Source: a virus (Duplodnaviria > Heunggongvirae > Uroviricota > Caudoviricetes). Taken from it: a DNA stretch of 18,618 bases. Of this stretch, positions 6,881 to 18,390 are shown piece by piece. Made by a program: the position numbers and the translations under genes. Under the pieces are notes generated by a model. That model worked only from the letters and a program-made list of their open reading frames with translations, was not told where the DNA came from and ran no database searches. The DNA lies in the IMG/VR virus record IMGVR_UViG_2778261163_000001; one strand, 5' to 3'. The first letter of the stretch is position 1. Every line of letters begins with the position of its first letter.

Positions 6881-7264
6881 TTACGCTCTCCTTAACTGGA
6901 TAGAGTAAACTGATGCGGAAGGATCTACACTTGCTGTAATTACCTCGTATCGTTGTAACTGCCTTGATACAGGATCATAAATCTCAATAATATGGTCGAC
7001 AGCTGGTTTATCCGTAACCTCGCATACCAGAGCGGTTAATTTAAGGTCACCATGCAAAATATTAATCCCATCAATTCTGCCCAGCTTATAACGTGTCAAC
7101 ACGCCTCGCCCGGTATAGATTGCGGTGGATTCGCCGCCAGTTTCCGTCACAGGATCCCAGTGCCGGTGCGTAACGTAAGAACCAGAAAAATCACTCACGG
7201 CGTCCGCTAAATCCTCATCAAAAGCAGCGGCAACCTCTGACTGAATCTCTTCACGAAGCCCCAT
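6881..7264 (-). CDS. head-tail joining protein (head closure / stopper by position)
   Basis: 127-aa ORF; abuts the upstream gene with a 1-nt overlap and is contiguous with the next. Confidence 0.5.
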   Translation of the reverse strand: MGLREEIQSEVAAAFDEDLADAVSDFSGSYVTHRHWDPVTETGGESTAIYTGRGVLTRYKLGRIDGINILHGDLKLTALVCEVTDKPAVDHIIEIYDPVSRQLQRYEVITASVDPSASVYSIQLRRA

Positions 7265-7659
7265 TATCCCCCCCTCACAACCCTGACTTGTGAGCGACTA
7301 AGTCCGTACGGTTTCAGCAGTGCTATCGCAAGCTGTAAATCGGGTTCAAGCAATGCAGTGCTGTTTGCTGGCAACTCAGAAAATGATTTCGATACACTGA
7401 CCCCGTCAGCCGACACGGCTTTACTGATAACAACGCCAGAATCATTTTTCTGCTGAAACAACTTACCGAATGAGGCAATTCTGGCTGCATATGCTCCCGC
7501 AAGTTTTACCTCTTCCGGAATACGGGATGGGTTAATTTTCAGGTTGAAGCCATTAAGCCAGGCATTAGCCATTAAAACAGCTTTATTTTTAGCGTTCTCA
7601 CTCGTCCAGGCGTTCCCAAACGCATTATCAACGTCATCACAGGTCACGTAAGTGATCAT
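7264..7659 (-). CDS. head-tail connector / adaptor protein (by position)
   Basis: 131-aa ORF, ATG at 7659 preceded by AGGAG at 6-nt spacing; first of the four small head-tail genes after the capsid gene. Confidence 0.5.
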   Translation of the reverse strand: MITYVTCDDVDNAFGNAWTSENAKNKAVLMANAWLNGFNLKINPSRIPEEVKLAGAYAARIASFGKLFQQKNDSGVVISKAVSADGVSVSKSFSELPANSTALLEPDLQLAIALLKPYGLSRSQVRVVRGG

Positions 7660-7662
7660 GTG

Positions 7663-7839
7663 TTACTCCTGAGTTTTCCAGCCCATAGCCTTCCAGTTGT
7701 CAACTTCATCAGGATGAACATTAGCGATAGTTGGTGCGCCGGGAAACATCTGATAATCGGTCACCATAACCACTAACTCAATTTGCGTTTTTTGTGCGGC
7801 TTCACGCTGTGCTCTTTGCTCTTTAGTTAATCCGGCCAT
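7663..7839 (-). CDS. small hypothetical protein (58 aa), not in the ORF track
   Basis: Found by my own translation: ATG at 7839..7837 to TAA at 7665..7663, giving MAGLTKEQRAQREAAQKTQIELVVMVTDYQMFPGAPTIANVHPDEVDNWKAMGWKTQE. Preceded by a G-rich stretch; its 3' end carries the AGGAG Shine-Dalgarno of the next gene and stops 3 nt before that gene's ATG. Confidence 0.4.
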   Translation of the reverse strand: MAGLTKEQRAQREAAQKTQIELVVMVTDYQMFPGAPTIANVHPDEVDNWKAMGWKTQE

Positions 7840-7848
7840 ATGCCCCCC

Positions 7849-9119: not shown

Positions 9120-9884
9120 TTAATCAACGATTGTGATACCGTCTTTCAATGCGTTTTGCTTACCTGCAACATCCAGTGCATCAAAAGCAGAGCGTTTCAT
9201 CGTTTTCTGACCAATATCATGCTGTGTCGGACGGGAGCCGCCGCCATTGTTGCCACTGGCTTTCAGGATGTAGTCTTTCTGAGGGTAATTTTCGACAAGG
9301 AACTCCAGCGCCTCATCAAACTGCGCCAGTTCGCCAGGCTTCGCGCGGGAATAAATTTTGTTGCCGGAAGCGTCATAAGCAACGATCCTCCCTTCTTCCA
9401 CTTTGAATGCCTGCCCGAAGCGGGCTTGTAATAAATCTGCCGGGATCGCAATTTTATCGGCAATATATTTTGAACCCGCAAAACTACCGCCAATCATAGA
9501 ATCGTAAAGCTGCTTCTCCAGCATCTGAGAGCGTTGCTTTTCTTCATCTAATTGCTGCTGAAAATTTTTCGTAATTTCTGCCTTAACCTGGTCAACCTGT
9601 CCCGCATCGAGCAGCTTTTTCTGGTCGATTTTTGACAGCATTTCCAGTGCCTCGATCGCCTTCTTCGGGTCTTCGATAGCGGCAAACTTAGCCAGTTTTT
9701 CCTCTGCAGCTTCTTTAGCCAGGCGATGATTTTTTGCCTCGCCATTAAGCTCTGTAATTTTTTTTGTCGCCAGCGGTGCATCGAAGCCAATTTCTTTACC
9801 ATCGTCGTGCACATAAACTGGCAGGCCAGCAGTATCAATTTCTGCGTATTGTTTTCCGTTAATCTCGACCGTTTTCAGTTTCAT
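9120..9884 (-). CDS. scaffolding protein (putative)
   Basis: Likely start ATG at 9884 (MKLKTVEINGKQYAEIDTAGL..., 254 aa; the track ORF is extended upstream). Charged, helical-looking middle region (AKEAAEEKLAKFAAIEDPKKAIEALEMLSKIDQKKL...QQQLDEEKQRSQMLEKQL). Position between the minor head protein and the major capsid gene. Confidence 0.55.
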   Translation of the reverse strand: MKLKTVEINGKQYAEIDTAGLPVYVHDDGKEIGFDAPLATKKITELNGEAKNHRLAKEAAEEKLAKFAAIEDPKKAIEALEMLSKIDQKKLLDAGQVDQVKAEITKNFQQQLDEEKQRSQMLEKQLYDSMIGGSFAGSKYIADKIAIPADLLQARFGQAFKVEEGRIVAYDASGNKIYSRAKPGELAQFDEALEFLVENYPQKDYILKASGNNGGGSRPTQHDIGQKTMKRSAFDALDVAGKQNALKDGITIVD

Positions 9885-9988: not shown

Positions 9989-11104
9989 TTAAATCCCTGC
10001 TTTTCTGAATACCTGTGCATCACGCTCACGGAGCTGCTTCAGCGTCAGCCATTCGCCTTTATCGGTGTAAAATTCATCTGGCGACATACCACCATCCCGA
10101 ATCAGCTTTGCTCGGGTTTCCCCCACAATCTGTTTTTGTCTGGTGTAAGGCTGACGCAAAAACCATTCCCTGTAGGTTGTATCTCCGGCCACCACGCCAT
10201 CCATGCTGGCCCGCTCAGCCGGGGAAATATCGCGAACATCAATACCCAGTTCCTTCGCTGATTTCAGAATGAACGTTTCCGTTGAGCGGCAGCAGAAATG
10301 AATTTTTCCCGGCCCCTGCAAATAAGGCACGCTGTGACCTATAGGTTTATTATTCAGCGTATATTTGAGGCGATCCCTGATTCGACATTGTGGCGTAGTA
10401 CGATTATCAAGCGTTGATAACCATTGCTTACCCTTAATCAAATCATTATTCGCGCTGGCAAAACTCTCACGGGCAGTAGCAGCAAGATGTCCAACCGCTG
10501 TTTTTGCAATGCTGGCCGCATTAGCCCGGCTCATCTGCAATGCACCATCCTGAAATCCCTTACTGACATGTCCCCGAATTTTTCTTGCGATCTGCTCATT
10601 GGTATCCCCCAGCAAAAAACCCTGACGCACTGTATTTGTTATGCGTCTGAGCCGATCCGCCTCAAGATCTGAGGCCCACTCACTGAGCAGTCGTCCCTGG
10701 AATGGTCGCGCCATTGCAGCGGCATAAAGTGCATCAGGAGAGATACCAACCAGAGGGTGAACATCAGCAACAAAATCAGGTAGCATAGAATCAAACAGAC
10801 TTAACTGATAACCAGCCTCATAAATTGCCAGCTCGTTCAGCTCTCCGGAGAGACTGGTAAACATGCTGTTAATAGCAGTGCGGTTAACCTCTCTGACGCT
10901 CGCCAGAAGTGACTCCAGGCGCTTAACGGTAAAACTACCTGGATCGAGGCTGTCCAGTGCTATCAGCAGGCGAGCAGTAAGTTCCGCATCGCTGTCATTC
11001 AGTATTTTCACCATTCTGGCAGCCACGCCAGTGCTATAGCGGGATATCCAGACTGCATGAGCAATTGATTCATCACGCAGCCGTTCATTCACGGTTTGCA
11101 TCAT
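9989..11104 (-). CDS. phage head morphogenesis / minor head protein (Mu gpF / SPP1 gp7 family)
   Basis: 371-aa ORF directly downstream of the portal gene (20-nt overlap). C-terminal region ...WLSTLDNRTTPQCRIRDRLKYTLNNKPIG...GPGKIHFCCRST fits the conserved core of the Mu-F-like family as I remember it. Confidence 0.65.
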   Translation of the reverse strand: MMQTVNERLRDESIAHAVWISRYSTGVAARMVKILNDSDAELTARLLIALDSLDPGSFTVKRLESLLASVREVNRTAINSMFTSLSGELNELAIYEAGYQLSLFDSMLPDFVADVHPLVGISPDALYAAAMARPFQGRLLSEWASDLEADRLRRITNTVRQGFLLGDTNEQIARKIRGHVSKGFQDGALQMSRANAASIAKTAVGHLAATARESFASANNDLIKGKQWLSTLDNRTTPQCRIRDRLKYTLNNKPIGHSVPYLQGPGKIHFCCRSTETFILKSAKELGIDVRDISPAERASMDGVVAGDTTYREWFLRQPYTRQKQIVGETRAKLIRDGGMSPDEFYTDKGEWLTLKQLRERDAQVFRKAGI

Positions 11105-12493: not shown

Positions 12494-13795
12494 TTAAATC
12501 CGAAGTGATGTGACTCTTCCGGTCGGTTTGACAATAGGGAATTGCTTAACGATGAAATAACCTCCGGCATCATTCGGGTGATCATTGCCAGATTTTTTAT
12601 CAGGCTCCCCCTTCTCATCCCAGACCTGTTGCTCCAGAGATTCGGCATATAACGGGCAACGCTTCACATTAACTTTATAGCGACGCTCACCATTGGCATT
12701 GCAGAACATTGCATTCATTGAGTTAACGCGATCTTTTACTGGCGGGTTCGAGCTGTTCACCACAACGTTAAAACCAGCCTGCTTAAGCTGGGCTATATCC
12801 GTCGTACTTGCGTTACTTGATTTTCTGGAATCCCCGGAAGCATCTGGATAAATATAAATTTCCCTCACTTTCCGGTAATCATTCCCATCATACAGCCAGA
12901 AGCGTTCTTTAATGATGCGGATCATATCCGGCGTATCGTAGGCATTGATGATTTCAGTTACCGCACATGGAAGCCCCAAACGCAGCACATGGACGATTCC
13001 CGCCATCTTTCCAACGTTAAAATCCATCCCAATATAAATCGGCTCCCCTGGCTGCTCCACTTCTTCGCAATTATTCAGTTTCCGGTCAAACTGATGGTAA
13101 ACAGTACCACTTGTCAGGTTAGTAAACTGTCCTCGAAGATAGGCTTTAATCAGCTCTGGAGGGTATGATTCAAGAAGCGAAGGAATGTAATCTGCTGGCA
13201 GGTTCTTTTCATTATCGAAAGTAGATGCCTGCACTAGACCATACAGTGAGGCCAGCTCTGTTTTTTCACGCACGGCTTTAACAAACTGCTCGTAGACAAA
13301 TTTGAATCCTTCCGGCGTGGTTGTAACGTCAATACCGTTGCGAAGTCCATCAATCTTATAACGCATACGTGCAATTATCTTGCGCCACGCCGTTCTGGCT
13401 TTTTCCTTCGGCAAAATGTCCAGTTCATCCACCAACGCATTACCAATTTTGAAACCGACGATCGTTTGTGGCTTCTCCATCGATCTGCAGATAGTGGTTC
13501 CCCGATACTGGCGTCCGTAATAAAAGTGAACCTCTTTATTTCCCTCATTAATTTTTACGTTCAATCCCCAGTCAGCAGCAACTTCTTCCACTGTAGGGTA
13601 AAAAATATCGCGAATTTGGGGATACGTTGGCGCAAAATATCCCTGATTTATACCTGGATGCTCCCAAATCCCCTTGCATATGCCGCCACACCCAACCCAT
13701 GTTTTGCCCGAGCCAAAACCAGCAATATAGGCTTTAAATTTATGGGGCATTGAAAGAAATCGCGCCTGAGGCACATTAAGCGTCGGAGAGATCAT
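12494..13795 (-). CDS. terL: terminase large subunit
   Basis: Walker A (YIAGFGSGKTW), Walker B-like (NALVDELD), and C-terminal nuclease-type acidic motifs (IGMDFN, YPDASGD, HPNDAGGYF). Likely start is ATG at 13795 (MISPTL..., 433 aa), 8 nt after AAGGAG; the track's 13804 start is GTG. Confidence 0.9.
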   Translation of the reverse strand: MISPTLNVPQARFLSMPHKFKAYIAGFGSGKTWVGCGGICKGIWEHPGINQGYFAPTYPQIRDIFYPTVEEVAADWGLNVKINEGNKEVHFYYGRQYRGTTICRSMEKPQTIVGFKIGNALVDELDILPKEKARTAWRKIIARMRYKIDGLRNGIDVTTTPEGFKFVYEQFVKAVREKTELASLYGLVQASTFDNEKNLPADYIPSLLESYPPELIKAYLRGQFTNLTSGTVYHQFDRKLNNCEEVEQPGEPIYIGMDFNVGKMAGIVHVLRLGLPCAVTEIINAYDTPDMIRIIKERFWLYDGNDYRKVREIYIYPDASGDSRKSSNASTTDIAQLKQAGFNVVVNSSNPPVKDRVNSMNAMFCNANGERRYKVNVKRCPLYAESLEQQVWDEKGEPDKKSGNDHPNDAGGYFIVKQFPIVKPTGRVTSLRI

Positions 13796-14870
13796 CTTCA
13801 TCACTCCTTACTCTGGCATCAACCACATTAATATTGATCGCCACAGGCTGGGGATGTTCATTATCCTCCACCGTTTCGATCTCTTTGCGCAGCTTCTGGT
13901 TTTCTATTCTGCGCCGTTCAATTTCCAGTTCCTGTAGCCGCTTATCTGCACATAATGCCCCGCCAGCAGAAAGCAAACGCAACAATTCACGCCGGGCGGC
14001 AGCCTTATCCTCCAGCAGGATCTCAACACCGTATTTTCCGAGCTTTGACCCTGCATATAATTGCCGCGCATCCCCATCAAGCAGTGTGGTATCAGCCATA
14101 TAAAGCTGTCCCGTTCCCTCACCGCAGCACTTCGGGCAATCCGGATTGGGTATGGCGTTATCAACAAAGCCGAGGCCTCCATATTCCGGCTCGGGTTTAC
14201 CATCTCTGGAGGCCTGTGCCGCAGCCTTATCGAATTCTGCAATATCACGCCACTGGTAGAGATGATTCTCGCCCCAGCAATAACGGCAGTTAACACGGCG
14301 AAATTGTGCCAACTGATTGGGGTCGGCCTGGACAATGGCCATCAACTGGCTCACCAGTAAATCCAGGTCTGCGGTATAGCGTTTCTGGTACTGATTGCGG
14401 AAGTAGCTGATAGCACGATAAACCCTGGCATTTCTAAGCATACGACTGGCGTTGCTGTTAGCTGTCGCACCTTGCCCCTCATAACCGGCTAGTCGGTACG
14501 CCTCTGTCGGCTTTTTACCCTGAGCAACAAGCATCGCAAACTTAGCCTGCTGGTCAGAAATGCCGAATTCATCGGGACAGAACGAAAATTCCTCCGCGTC
14601 GCCTTCATTCAGGCCCGCATCGAATACTGGCTTTTTTTCCTGAGATTTTTCGTTCCGCTTTTGTGCAGTCTGCGCAGATTTTTTCTGCGCACTTTTTTGC
14701 GCAGTTTTGCGCATTTCTGTCTGCGCATTTTTCGGAGTTTTTTTGATGTAACGACGGGCTGTTGCGTAATTCAGTCCCCTTGCTTCACACCATGCCACCG
14801 GAGATATACCGGAGCGGGTGTATTCAGCAATATACTCCTGCTGCAACGCCCCCCAGTCCGGTCTGCTCAT
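13776..14870 (-). CDS. terS: terminase small subunit (long form, with Cys4 cluster)
   Basis: Immediately upstream of terL and overlapping it. Central segment ...SDQQAKFAMLVAQGKKPTEAYRLAGYEGQGATANSNASRMLRNARVYRAISYF... fits the small-terminase HTH pattern. Also has an N-terminal HTH-like region, a Lys/Gln/Ala-rich linker, and a CxxC...CxxC cluster (CRYCWGENH...CPKCCGEG). Confidence 0.75.
   Translation of the reverse strand: MSRPDWGALQQEYIAEYTRSGISPVAWCEARGLNYATARRYIKKTPKNAQTEMRKTAQKSAQKKSAQTAQKRNEKSQEKKPVFDAGLNEGDAEEFSFCPDEFGISDQQAKFAMLVAQGKKPTEAYRLAGYEGQGATANSNASRMLRNARVYRAISYFRNQYQKRYTADLDLLVSQLMAIVQADPNQLAQFRRVNCRYCWGENHLYQWRDIAEFDKAAAQASRDGKPEPEYGGLGFVDNAIPNPDCPKCCGEGTGQLYMADTTLLDGDARQLYAGSKLGKYGVEILLEDKAAARRELLRLLSAGGALCADKRLQELEIERRRIENQKLRKEIETVEDNEHPQPVAININVVDARVRSDEDDLSDA
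14662..14727. repeat. phased array of palindromic TGCGCA hexamers separated by T-tracts, inside terS; candidate pac / terminase-binding site
   Basis: Five exact TGCGCA copies at 14671, 14686, 14698, 14708 and 14722, plus a TGTGCA variant at 14662, spaced 9-15 bp apart with T-runs between them. They coincide with the AQK-repeat linker of TerS. The repeat itself is read directly; the function is inference. Confidence 0.4.
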
Positions 14871-14873
14871 CAG

Positions 14874-15125
14874 TTAGTCCTGATTTTTATCCACCCTGAG
14901 TAGTTCGCGCAGAGCAAAGGCATCCCCTTTTCTGGCAAGCTTAAACAATGCCGCTCGTAACTCGGCTTCACCTTTCGCTCTGCCCTTACGGATGGCCGCA
15001 TAAAAATCTGTCATTGCTTCCCGATTTTCTTTCAGTCGGTTCAGATCAACATCCAGAACGTCAGCGATTTGTTGTGCAGTCATCCGGCACGCTGCCAGAG
15101 ACTCGACTTTCGAATACGGAATCAT
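14874..15125 (-). CDS. small helix-turn-helix protein, function unknown (possibly packaging-associated)
   Basis: 83-aa ORF, ATG at 15125 preceded by GGGGGTGA. Segment TAQQIADVLDVDLNRLKENRE looks like an HTH. Stops 3 nt before the terS start; overlaps the 3' end of the upstream glycosyltransferase-like gene by about 65 nt. Confidence 0.4.
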   Translation of the reverse strand: MIPYSKVESLAACRMTAQQIADVLDVDLNRLKENREAMTDFYAAIRKGRAKGEAELRAALFKLARKGDAFALRELLRVDKNQD

Positions 15126-15993
15126 TTGTCACCCCCATTGATATGCAGGGTGTCTTCTTCCTGTATTTTTCGTGAAGGATTTTTACTGCAGCGTTGTTCC
15201 AGGTGACCTGATGGTGAATGCGTTTATGGCTGGCACCCATCAGTGAAATTTTTACGCACGACGGCGCATACATGACGGAGTAAAAACTTTTAACGTAGGT
15301 TCCGGAATCCAGATACAGCTCGGTCATTCCGCCGCTGTTTTTCTGCGTCTGTTTCTGCCCTAACTGGACAGCACCGATCGTCATAAACAATTCACCACAG
15401 CGACCGAGATTCGTGTACGTATTCACATCCTCGTTAATGCGCCCCATGAATGAGAACGGTCGATCAACCGAACAGATAAAGCTGTTCATTGCCTTGCGTT
15501 TCACCCACGAAGCATGGCCGCCATTGTCACCAAGAAAATCCCCGCCCTGCGACATAGCGATGGAAAGAGCAGGTATTGATTCGTAGTACGCCAGCATTTC
15601 AGAAAGGATCGCATCCAGTTTCCTTATCGGAAAATAGGCCTGGTCATAGTTGCGATCCACCCGAAACTGGAACTCGTGATAATCATCATCGAGCTGAATG
15701 AAGTATTTACACCCGACCAGTTTTGCCAGGTCGAAACAGGCATTACGGGCGTAAAAAATTGAGCGGCGGTCACAGAAATTATCGGCTTCGTCAAAACGAC
15801 TGGCGATATCGGTTTTGGAAAACACCAGCACCTGTTCACCAAATTCAGCCATGTACTGATGCCGTGTCTTATCTTCATCATCAACAACGATAAAAATTTT
15901 CCCGGTATAGCCAGCACGACGCAACGTTCGGTAAGTCAGAACTTTGTCCGGTCGCCCGTGAGTCAGAATAAAGGCGCAAAAATCATCACGCAT
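15061..15993 (-). CDS. GT-A-fold (GT2-like) glycosyltransferase-like protein, soluble
   Basis: Likely start ATG at 15993, 5 nt after GAGGAGGAGG (310 aa; the track start at 16014 lacks an SD). Motif layout typical of nucleotide-sugar GT-A enzymes: N-terminal strand AFILTHGR, acidic pair after strand 2 (KIFIVVDDED), and a DxD motif in the context ARNACFDLAKLVGCKYFIQLDDDYHEF. No obvious hydrophobic membrane segments. Confidence 0.5.
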   Translation of the reverse strand: MRDDFCAFILTHGRPDKVLTYRTLRRAGYTGKIFIVVDDEDKTRHQYMAEFGEQVLVFSKTDIASRFDEADNFCDRRSIFYARNACFDLAKLVGCKYFIQLDDDYHEFQFRVDRNYDQAYFPIRKLDAILSEMLAYYESIPALSIAMSQGGDFLGDNGGHASWVKRKAMNSFICSVDRPFSFMGRINEDVNTYTNLGRCGELFMTIGAVQLGQKQTQKNSGGMTELYLDSGTYVKSFYSVMYAPSCVKISLMGASHKRIHHQVTWNNAAVKILHEKYRKKTPCISMGVTNDSVFESRVSGSVPDDCTTNR

Positions 15994-16777
15994 ATTCCTC
16001 CTCCTCACCACCATGCATGATCTCCACCATGCGCTGCGTCATCCGGACAAATCCATTTTCAATAGCCTGCTGATAATCAATGATCACCAGCGCCGACTCC
16101 TCGAAAAAACACTGAATTTCAGCGGGGGCGTGAGCGTAATAGTCCGCAATTCTGCTGAAATTAAACACCGTGTGACGTTCTGCCGCACACAGGAGGAATT
16201 TCTCAATATCAGGCTCAAGGGAAGCCGAACGTATCCGGCTGATCAGCTCCTGCGTTTTCGTATCGTCGTACAGTTCACTGATATCCGGTTTACCGCCCGA
16301 CGGCTCATAAACAGGCGTATCAATTTTCGTCGTATACGGCTCCTCCTCATTTCCTGTACCGGGCAAAACATCCGTCAACAGTTCATCAATTTCTGTCGGG
16401 ATGAAGCCTGTCAGGGAGACATCAAAATCAGCATTGATTAGGTCCGACAGCTCCATCCGCAACAGATCTTCATCCCAGCCAGCATTCATCGGCAGGCGAT
16501 TATCTGCCAGGCGGTACGCCTTTTTCTGCTCATCCGTCAGGCCAGACAGAACAATGACCGGAACAGAATCCATTTTGAGCATTTCAGCCGCCATAACACG
16601 ACCGTGACCCGCAATAATTTCGCCCTTTTCGTCAATCAGCACCGGATTAGTCCAGCCGAATTGCTTAATACTTTCTACCAGTTGTGCCACCTGCTCAGGG
16701 CTGTGCGTCCTGGCGTTGTGCGCATACGGTGACAATTCTTGTAATGGGCGATAGACTATCTTTAATTTCTCGCTCAT
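15986..16777 (-). CDS. ParB-like nuclease domain (ParB/Srx fold) protein
   Basis: 263-aa ORF, ATG at 16777 preceded by AAGGA. N-terminal ...FGWTNPVLIDEKGEIIAGHGRVMAAEMLKMDSVPVIVL... carries the GHGR motif characteristic of ParB N-terminal / sulfiredoxin-like domains. Acidic C-terminus. Its stop overlaps the glycosyltransferase-like start (ATGCGTGA). Confidence 0.7.
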   Translation of the reverse strand: MSEKLKIVYRPLQELSPYAHNARTHSPEQVAQLVESIKQFGWTNPVLIDEKGEIIAGHGRVMAAEMLKMDSVPVIVLSGLTDEQKKAYRLADNRLPMNAGWDEDLLRMELSDLINADFDVSLTGFIPTEIDELLTDVLPGTGNEEEPYTTKIDTPVYEPSGGKPDISELYDDTKTQELISRIRSASLEPDIEKFLLCAAERHTVFNFSRIADYYAHAPAEIQCFFEESALVIIDYQQAIENGFVRMTQRMVEIMHGGEEEEYA

Positions 16778-16914: not shown

Positions 16915-18372
16915 TTAGGAGCGCCAAAAAAAACCTGAAAACAATATAATAACAGGATAAATTTCAAGGCGACCAAGAATCATAGCTATGCACATTAAAT
17001 ATTTTGCAATGTCATTAAGCACTCCGAATGACGATGCAGTAGCCCCAAAACCTAATCCCATATTATTAATACATGCAGCCACTGTTGCAAATGATGTAAG
17101 AAAATCATATCCCATACCATTTAACACCAGTATAAAAAACACCGTGAAGAGAGTATAAAGAAAAAAGAAACTCCATACAGACCTCATTACACGATCTGTA
17201 ACTATCTTCCCTCCTACATTTACACTCAACAACGCTCTGGGATGAGAAAGCTGATTTATCTCGTGTTTGCTTTGTTTGAAAAGTATAAGAAATCGAAGTG
17301 ACTTAATTCCACCACAAGTTGAACCTATACATCCCCCAAAGAAACTTGACAACAGCAAAAACACTATCGTGTGCGTGGGCCAGCTTGCATAATCCTGCGT
17401 AGCTAAACCATTATCAGTGAGCATGGAGCTGGCAAGAAAAAACGAATGAATAAAACTTCCATGCAAGTCATACATACCTATATGCCAGACCTGGAAAGAG
17501 GTAACAATGATCACCCCTAAGGCTATTAACAGAAAGAAACGAAGTTCAATATCTCTGATTAAAGGTTTTATCGTTTTCCTGCTAATAACAATATACCAAA
17601 GAGTGAAGTTGAAAGCCGATAGCAGGGAAAAAGAACCAGCCACCAGCTCAACCAAATAGTTATTAAAATATCCGATACTCTCGCTATGAGTTGAGAAACC
17701 ACCAAGCGAAACTGTGGAAATCCCGTGACAAATAGCGTCAAACAAAGGCATTCCTGCAAGTCTATAACAGACAATACAAGCAATACCTAATAAAGAATAA
17801 GTTATCCACAGTGTCCGTGACGTATCGGCCAGGCGGGGAGTGAGTTTGTCATCCTTAAATGGCCCCGGCATTTCTGACTGATAAAGCTTTGCACCACCAA
17901 TACCCAATAATGGCAATACAGCAACCGCCAGAACAATAACTCCTAAACCACCTATAAAATTTAACTGTGACCGATAGTACAAATATGCCCGAGGTAATGA
18001 ACTAACATCATCAATTACAGTTGCTCCTGTTGTTGTTATTCCAGAAACCCCTTCAAACAGAGCATCAATGAACGTTAAATTAAGTTCTGAGTCAATCCAT
18101 AAAGGGAATGCACTAATAACAGAAAACAAAATCCAAAACATTACAATTATAATAAACCCATCACGGGTACGTAATTGAATGCCAGATTTCTTAGTTGTAT
18201 ACCACGCTCCGCCACCAATACAAAAAAATATAACGAAAGTTATAAAGAAAACGAACAGGCTTTTTTCTTTATAAAACAATGCTACAACCATTGGTGGCAA
18301 CATTGAAAGACTATAGAGCCAAACCAGGAACCCACACATATGAGTAACAACTCTTACATGAGATGTATTCAT
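16915..18372 (-). CDS. trkG: Trk-system potassium uptake protein TrkG
   Basis: Polytopic membrane protein with repeated glycine-rich selectivity-filter-like segments (GVSGITTTG, LNFIGGLGVIVL, STVSLGGFSTH, NNMGLGFGA) typical of the TrkH/TrkG/KtrB family. Starting at the ATG at 18372 (MNTSHVRVV...) gives 485 aa, the length I recall for E. coli TrkG; the track start at 18390 is TTG. The region is visibly AT-rich relative to the phage structural genes, and trkG is known to reside in the Rac prophage. Confidence 0.85.
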   Translation of the reverse strand: MNTSHVRVVTHMCGFLVWLYSLSMLPPMVVALFYKEKSLFVFFITFVIFFCIGGGAWYTTKKSGIQLRTRDGFIIIVMFWILFSVISAFPLWIDSELNLTFIDALFEGVSGITTTGATVIDDVSSLPRAYLYYRSQLNFIGGLGVIVLAVAVLPLLGIGGAKLYQSEMPGPFKDDKLTPRLADTSRTLWITYSLLGIACIVCYRLAGMPLFDAICHGISTVSLGGFSTHSESIGYFNNYLVELVAGSFSLLSAFNFTLWYIVISRKTIKPLIRDIELRFFLLIALGVIIVTSFQVWHIGMYDLHGSFIHSFFLASSMLTDNGLATQDYASWPTHTIVFLLLSSFFGGCIGSTCGGIKSLRFLILFKQSKHEINQLSHPRALLSVNVGGKIVTDRVMRSVWSFFFLYTLFTVFFILVLNGMGYDFLTSFATVAACINNMGLGFGATASSFGVLNDIAKYLMCIAMILGRLEIYPVIILFSGFFWRS

Positions 18373-18390
18373 ATCTAAATATTCTTTCAA

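Follow-up and report, generated by a model that had tools for sequence, protein, structure and literature searches.

The terS locus and its hexamer array

The DNA analysed here (the window) is the whole 18,618-nucleotide stretch of IMG/VR record IMGVR_UViG_2778261163_000001, a Rac-type lambdoid prophage with its genes on the minus strand. Its small terminase gene, terS (13776..14870, minus strand), encodes a protein of 364 residues that is matched by Pfam Terminase_2 (E=1.5e-8) and by phrog_51 (E=1e-76), and at 14662..14727 it contains a cluster of palindromic hexamers, six in all; five of them read TGCGCA and one reads TGTGCA, and no strand is assigned to any. The comparative analysis of this array leads us to propose that it is the part of the pac site to which TerS binds (the recognition element), in a Rac-type prophage presumed to package DNA by a headful mechanism, a reading to which we attach a probability of about 0.7.

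A recount bears out both the six hexamers with intervening T-tracts described in an earlier note on this DNA and their placement inside the small terminase gene, where they occupy codons 48-70. The copy at 14662..14667 is degenerate: it reads TGTGCA, or TGCACA in the coding sense over T68-A69-Q70, and is an exact TGCGCA in many relatives. The exact copies follow at 14671..14676 (S65-A66-Q67), 14686..14691 (S60-A61-Q62), 14698..14703 (T56-A57-Q58), 14708..14713 and 14722..14727 (N48-A49-Q50), with start-to-start spacings for the six copies of 9, 15, 12, 10 and 14 bp and T-runs between them on the plus strand. The earlier note had placed the hexamers over an AQK-repeat linker; an AQK-rich linker is indeed encoded, but the copy at 14708..14713 reads M53-R54-K55 (ATG CGC AAA) in a different frame. 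The window as a whole contains 11 TGCGCA against 7.5 expected, and five of these 11 fall within 57 bp; the only other copy in terS is a single one at gene offset +979. Relatives usually carry four to six copies, with a maximum of ten. No published description of a TGCGCA array in terS was found in the literature searched (TGCGCA and terminase, Rac prophage pac, 933W pac, terS repeats and helix-turn-helix).

The protein encoded by terS seems to combine several modules. The Terminase_2 profile (PF03592) covers residues 122-316 with 35.8 bits against a cut-off of 26.1, and a canonical Terminase_2-type helix-turn-helix (HTH) is placed at about residues 105-163 (14382..14558, minus strand) by the Pfam match, by phrog_641 (residues 105-162) and by a weak match of residues 108-163 to the Pam5 small terminase 21di_E (E=0.14), the only match in a sequence search of solved structures. 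The core also carries a CxxC...CxxC insert (the Terminase_2/Zn-ribbon type). Upstream of the canonical HTH runs a Lys-rich, low-complexity linker (residues 46-100; 14571..14735, minus strand), which carries the array, and this in turn is preceded by an extra N-terminal domain resembling that of the P1 protein PacA (residues 1-45; 14736..14870, minus strand), which was identified through phrog_1711 (E=3.3e-5), hhalign and the helices of an AlphaFold2 (AF2) model. This model, built for residues 1-65, agrees with an HTH: it predicts a three-helix domain (helices 6-20, 24-31 and 35-38) with confidence dropping past residue 45. The predicted recognition helix reads T37-A38-R39-R40-Y41-I42-K43, with the R39 codon at 14754-14756. 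A Pfam search with the N-terminal 52 residues returned nothing meaningful for the window type and generic HTH families for the Serratia type. Distant homologues (Acinetobacter, Collimonas, Clostridium and others) begin at the canonical HTH and are without the array.

Many database open reading frames (ORFs) of 44-84 amino acids consist of the HTH alone and end in an A-rich linker. The sequences suggest that the A7-A9 runs of the linker are prone to frameshift, real or arising from sequencing, and this would explain why hexamers are found in differing frames.

Conservation of the array as DNA

The array is conserved as DNA, and the AQK linker does not account for it. When linker codons 42-75 were resampled synonymously according to each gene's own codon usage (20000 resamples), the window linker contained 0.54 TGCGCA on average and 4 at most; the five observed were reached in none of the 20000 resamples. 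The same procedure gave P values of at most 3e-4 for 12 other divergent terS genes and, as a positive control, recovered the experimentally proven pac hexamers of P1 (P=1/20000). In 115 distinct terS genes, 456 of the 506 A-Q pairs in the linker (90%) have the codon pattern (nnT)(GCG)(CAr); away from the linker and from the region of a second cluster (see below), 14 of 199 such pairs (7%) in those genes use T|GCG|CA. Across relatives, the copies are distributed over the three reading frames as 417, 102 and 33. The terS of Klebsiella phage 5 LV-2017, at 45% protein identity, retains six exact copies, which read TAQ, TAQ, PAQ, LRT, TAQ and CA.

The comparison of relatives at synonymous positions, which the earlier note had put forward as a check, thus finds the hexamers kept through protein divergence and frame changes; related terS genes in which the AQK repeat persists but the hexamers are gone, which the note had taken as the pattern that would speak against a DNA signal, are not seen, and it is the opposite pattern that holds. 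The suggestion that the stretch is constrained at both nucleotide and protein level stands for the DNA, but the protein part was overstated, because the residue preceding A-Q in the linker takes 12 identities in the 115 genes and yet its codon always ends in T.

These data bear directly on the notion that the hexamers are a neutral result of an AQK linker growing through replication slippage, with no function at the DNA level. Tandem Repeats Finder does report periods of 10, 12 and 15 in the array, the linker is rich in Lys, Ala and Gln, and its A-runs appear prone to frameshift. Slippage is nonetheless contradicted by the resampling result, by the spelling bias that separates the linker from the remainder of the gene, by copies in three frames, by the persistence of the array at 45% protein identity and by one intergenic instance (see below), and we rank it as the least probable of the explanations considered in this work.

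Association with an N-terminal helix-turn-helix

The array is associated with one type of N-terminal HTH. In a set of terS genes retrieved through the core CRYCWG motif, and hence blind to hexamers, all 13 genes with an N-domain of the '...NYATARRYIKK' type have at least three TGCGCA at +137 to +203, and no TGCGCA array occurs in those with another HTH (n=4) or with no N-terminal extension (n=8). The four genes with other N-domains show different short repeats at the same place: GTGGAAAC/GTTTCC in the Serratia aquatilis type and GGGGCA/TGCCCC in the Erwinia/Izhakiella type, both with motifs picked post hoc and, therefore, with optimistic P values. The array thus goes with the HTH and not with the TerS core, for the N-domain recurs on cores that are unrelated to one another. 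GER2 joins a 933W-type core to the ARRYIK helix and five TGCGCA, and Yersinia vB_YenM_29.18 and Providencia PSTCR3 present an AKRYIK helix together with TGCGAA/TTCGCA arrays.

A scan of IMG/VR for at least three TGCGCA spaced 3-10 bp returned at least 121 arrays, from the first 120 contigs. Among the 121 listed, 76 lie in an ORF with this type of N-terminal HTH, at codon 50-90, and three more are in truncated or frameshifted copies of such genes; the remaining listed arrays are mostly tandem low-complexity coding repeats or three-copy matches. Arrays were found in genomes ranging from 40% to 61% GC with the same phage-encoded HTH. The intergenic case is that of L228, a 40%-GC phage whose terS (7121-7843) encodes the ARRYIK helix and has zero hexamers within the gene; six TGCGCA are instead found in 57 bp of intergenic DNA (9745-9801), 1.9 kb upstream of terS, which indicates that the array is separable from any coding role.

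Several further observations were made on the distribution of these arrays. The L228 array and a similar one in L200 (1892-1946), both from 40%-GC phages, are intergenic sets of five or six TGCGCA upstream of lysis genes. Non-coding TGCGCA arrays without a recognisable terS link occur at L165 10006-10290, L215 1571-1680 and L142 10434-10530; that of L165 adjoins a P4-type integrase and a tRNA-like end, and could be a set of operators or belong to a satellite element that copies the pac signal of its helper phage. The terS genes of the Klebsiella/Citrobacter/Raoultella type (L012-L017, L020, L002) have a second cluster of two to four TGCGCA at +347 to +424, which falls in the region coding for the canonical Terminase_2 HTH (VAQAIAQ...VRT). 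Lastly, Rac-SA53 (L001 3650-3760) has undergone a gpO-terS fusion in which the HTH was deleted, and three of its five remaining hexamers are mutated (TTCGCA, TGCGCT and TGCCCA), a decay that suggests relaxed constraint but is anecdotal and not statistically meaningful.

Co-variation of helix and hexamer

Among the listed matches of the TGCGCA scan, all 74 array genes compared have a predicted recognition helix of the form [ST]ARR[YH]. Five loci with this type of N-terminal HTH came out of a scan for TGCGAA arrays, all five with [ST]AKR[YH], and the Yersinia and Providencia phages bring the latter association to 7/7. The two types are closely intermixed: the K-type domain of PSTCR3 shares 86% identity in residues 1-36 with an R-type domain accompanied by nine TGCGCA, the Yersinia K-type is 81% identical to another R-type, and the K-type of L350 is also nearest to an R-type. 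Since K- and R-types are interleaved as nearest neighbours, the R/K switch seems to have arisen several times, each time with a C/A change at position 5 of the hexamer. This co-variation is the strongest evidence that the N-domain of TerS itself reads the hexamer.

The same data speak to the possibility that another protein binds the array, be it a host factor, the product of the ParB_N-domain gene located 1.1 kb upstream of terS or a restriction-modification or methyltransferase enzyme for TGCGCA. TGCGCA is the sort of palindrome that dimeric proteins and type II enzymes recognise, and both this symmetry and the proximity of the ParB_N gene lend the idea some appeal. The arrays, however, span genomes of presumably different hosts and are always accompanied by the same phage HTH, and the TGCGAA variants, which are not palindromic, track a residue of TerS. 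A different binder is hence, in our view, highly improbable. The ParB_N protein and the neighbouring glycosyltransferase were in addition considered individually as binders and rejected, as Klebsiella phage 5 and GER2 keep arrays and lack both genes.

A third pairing may exist in the Shiga toxin phage 933W, whose terS encodes a homologous N-terminal HTH with an ARTRIK helix and, from about +140 to +185, contains four [CT]GATCA repeated every 12 bp. These repeats, P1-like and with Dam sites, are a candidate pac site, but the claim is weak because a scan for GATCAT arrays of the 933W type returned identical 933W-like sequences only and because the resampling was not significant (P about 0.1), the I-D-H codons almost forcing GATCA. 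The pairing of the ARTR helix with [CT]GATCA is likewise weaker than the other two, since the sequences behind it are nearly identical and it cannot be told apart from a coding effect.

Taken with the association described above, the co-variation allows a broader, more tentative suggestion, which we think somewhat less likely to be right than wrong: that the PacA-like HTH and its hexamers make up a portable packaging-specificity cassette of ~200 bp, mounted on at least three unrelated TerS cores and following a code in which ARR pairs with TGCGCA and AKR with TGCGAA. The cores that appear to carry it are of the Terminase_2/Zn-ribbon, 933W and PacA types. With a domain and its own sites encoded in overlapping DNA, recombination could not easily part them.

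Relationship to P1 PacA and other packaging systems

The N-terminal HTH of the window TerS is, by sequence comparison, homologous to the N-terminus of P1 PacA. The profile of the P1 PacA family (phrog_1711) scores at 3.3e-5 for the window TerS, 3.1e-5 for 933W TerS, 7e-7 for PSTCR3 and 4e-202 for PacA itself; BLASTP aligns NPNTARRYLR of PacA with NYATARRYIK of the window (E=0.004), and hhalign matches a profile of 12 N-domains to PacA residues 3-42 (92.8%, E=4e-7). The in-gene hexamer array of P1 is an experimentally defined pac site, and synonymous mutation of its hexamers lowers the P1 titre about 9-fold (PMC10028697). In the annotated P1 record, TGATC[AG] occurs at +193 to +232 and at +323 to +379 of pacA, in two clusters flanking the mapped cleavage sites (+275 to +285) and an IHF site.

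The two systems are alike in several respects. In both, the first (5') third of the small-terminase gene contains a cluster of TG-NN-CA hexamers that comes immediately downstream of the DNA coding for the HTH, which in the window is of the PacA type and lies directly upstream of the repeats; in both, copies occupy more than one reading frame and the hexamers exceed what the protein sequence requires. They also differ in several respects. The window hexamer, TGCGCA, is without the GATC found in P1 TGATC[A/G] and in the [CT]GATCA of the 933W type, so that Dam control has no counterpart here, and the window combines a Terminase_2 core with a Terminase_6 TerL where P1 has PacA and PacB. The Klebsiella, Citrobacter and Raoultella relatives do show a bipartite layout like the HEX4/HEX3 of P1. 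On balance, the array is probably best classed as a P1-type pac architecture in which the hexamer is new, Dam sites are absent and there is one cluster.

P22 and SPP1, which the earlier note had offered as precedents, are less close to the window than P1, which has a homologous HTH and an in-gene hexamer array. P22, a headful lambdoid phage, likewise has its packaging signal within the small terminase gene (PMC9611059, PMC11260489), but this is one asymmetric sequence of 22 bp in gene 3 rather than an array of repeats, and P22 TerS is without a PacA-like N-terminal HTH, DNA recognition being attributed to other parts of the protein. For SPP1/SF6 (pacL, pacC and pacR; G1P ring), the literature describes multiple contacts of the TerS oligomer near the 5' end of the gene, A-tract-rich DNA and a model of several HTHs of the ring engaging DNA, all of which recall the window (PMC9611059, PMC4737164). 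The binding reported in vitro is, however, weak and largely sequence-independent for SPP1/SF6 (PMC9611059), as opposed to the discrete, exact hexamer and extra HTH of the window system. A further likeness is found in lambda. The R-sites of its cosB are short repeats read by the N-terminal winged HTH of gpNu1, the small terminase subunit, and several short repeats and an N-terminal HTH of the small subunit are thus common to both; the sites of lambda are located outside the gene, act with IHF in a cos (cohesive-end) mechanism and have no sequence relationship to the window system.

The kinship with P1 also bears on a different role for TerS binding, in which the hexamers would be operators for TerS or its N-domain, acting in self-repression or in blocking transcription of the late operon, and the pac signal would lie elsewhere. 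Co-variation and HTH association fit any function that involves TerS binding; the sites are inside the gene of their presumed binder, and the L228 array sits just upstream of a start codon. The homologous P1 system, on the other hand, is experimentally a pac site; no sigma-70-like promoter was found within 14300-15200, around the array, and an operator role need not exclude packaging. We therefore regard operators without a packaging role as unlikely, if less so than the other alternatives.

Evaluation of the packaging reading

A number of observations weigh against the array as a pac element and have to be set beside the evidence in its favour. P1 has two clusters (4 + 3, HEX4/HEX3) flanking the cut, whereas the window has one cluster of 5-6, and a consensus scan of the window for the IHF site found a sole WATCAANNNNTTR match, at 10436, rather than one by the hexamers; with no second cluster and no IHF consensus near the array, the cut site cannot be placed. 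Pac-type TerS proteins have for the most part shown weak, non-specific binding to DNA in vitro (PMC9611059). Single copies of the hexamer are missing in many prophages, the commonest variant having TGTGCA at copy 2. Spacing is irregular: the 9-15 bp of the window stands as first described, but its likening to one helical turn is apt only loosely, as 101 distinct relatives range over 7-16 bp, with common values of 7, 9, 10, 12, 14, 15 and 16 bp and without helical phasing. The AF2 model is of moderate quality (mean pLDDT 73), and Foldseek returned no significant PDB match for it (residues 1-65), its top candidates all being HTH domains. Finally, L118 has a terS with a different HTH and yet six TGCGCA in the linker, and P1 has a nearly identical helix, TARRYLR, and yet the hexamer TGATCA. 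Residue 39 alone cannot, therefore, set specificity, and the P1 case implies that other residues also contribute to it.

The last of these points concerns RNA. The sense RNA of 14640-14760 folds at -32.2 kcal/mol, compared with -20.9 for shuffles (z=-3.85), and the plus strand at 14660-14727, antisense to terS, presents four terminator-like hairpins (pairs of hexamers followed by T-runs) against 1.3 expected. Hairpins between hexamers might in that case steer the translation or stability of terS mRNA, or act with their U-runs as antisense terminators. Such constraint at the RNA level, though physically plausible, is difficult to reconcile with the TGCGAA arrays, which are mostly direct repeats unable to pair with one another and yet are found at the same place behind the same HTH; the number of copies and their spacing are free to vary, one array is intergenic, a search of the window against Rfam gave no match, and the co-variation with a protein residue would be left unexplained. 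We consequently give RNA-level constraint very little credence.

The proposal of a pac or terminase recognition site made in the earlier note is thus supported by comparison, in that the hexamers survive divergence, follow one type of HTH, co-vary with its helix and go with homology to PacA; packaging would presumably start nearby. In mechanistic terms, TerS may be envisaged as a protein with two DNA-binding modules, the Terminase_2 HTH and the N-terminal PacA-like HTH (residues 1-45), the latter tethered by the flexible Lys-rich linker. Each N-terminal HTH of a TerS oligomer would read one hexamer, with R39 as a candidate contact for hexamer position 5, and five or six sites placed 9-15 bp apart, with A/T runs in between, might provide for high-avidity, sequence-specific capture of phage DNA. 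The bound complex would then recruit TerL, presumably both nuclease and motor, for a first cut nearby, and packaging would probably proceed from there towards terL, that is, towards lower window coordinates.

Genomic setting

The large terminase gene, terL (12494..13804, minus strand), is matched by Pfam Terminase_6N (E=3.7e-33) and Terminase_6C (E=3.4e-10), and is followed by a DUF4055 portal gene and a gene for a MuF-like protein. A sequence search with TerL against solved structures gave no match. Its nearest named relatives, at 40-51% identity, belong to Jerseyvirus, Kagunavirus and Dhillonvirus phages, which are described as packaging by a headful mechanism. Directly upstream of terS lies an ORF of 83 amino acids (14874-15125, minus strand) that matches positions 145-218 of phrog_309 (E=8e-23), a family that itself carries the annotation 'terminase small subunit'.

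Further upstream, a gene for a TAGT-type ('TET-associated') glycosyltransferase (15061-16014, minus strand; phrog_842, named beta-glucosyl-HMC-alpha-glucosyltransferase) and that of the ParB_N-domain protein (15986-16777, minus strand) sit between terS and trkG (16915-18390). The pair may constitute a module for DNA modification; neither a TET nor a methyltransferase gene was seen within the window. The vB_EcoS-...R series of Escherichia phages and Salmonella phage SPF_0923 carry near-identical DNA, in which the gene is annotated as small terminase subunit, and the 5' region of terS is present in 883 of 5426 complete E. coli genomes.

Implications for packaging and transduction

Sequence-specific recognition of pac by TerS is still described as unclear and controversial (PMC9611059), and the pac sites are not known even in transducing phages as well studied as ES18 (PMC11260489). 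The system described here offers a discrete, exact and repeated target, a small dedicated domain and a natural co-variation of R39/K39 with C/A at hexamer position 5, and this combination makes the question of how TerS recognises pac directly testable. The same architecture is present in prophages of Klebsiella, Citrobacter, Serratia, Yersinia and Providencia, as well as in Shiga toxin (Stx)-converting phages. The predicted pac position would mark the start of lateral or generalised transduction of neighbouring host genes, and the array sequence could serve in building or disabling transducing particles, as has been done for P1 (PMC10028697). More generally, if the tentative cassette interpretation is true, pac sites and the starting points of transduction would become predictable in hundreds of Enterobacterales prophages, including Stx phages, and packaging specificity could be re-programmed by the swap of a single residue.

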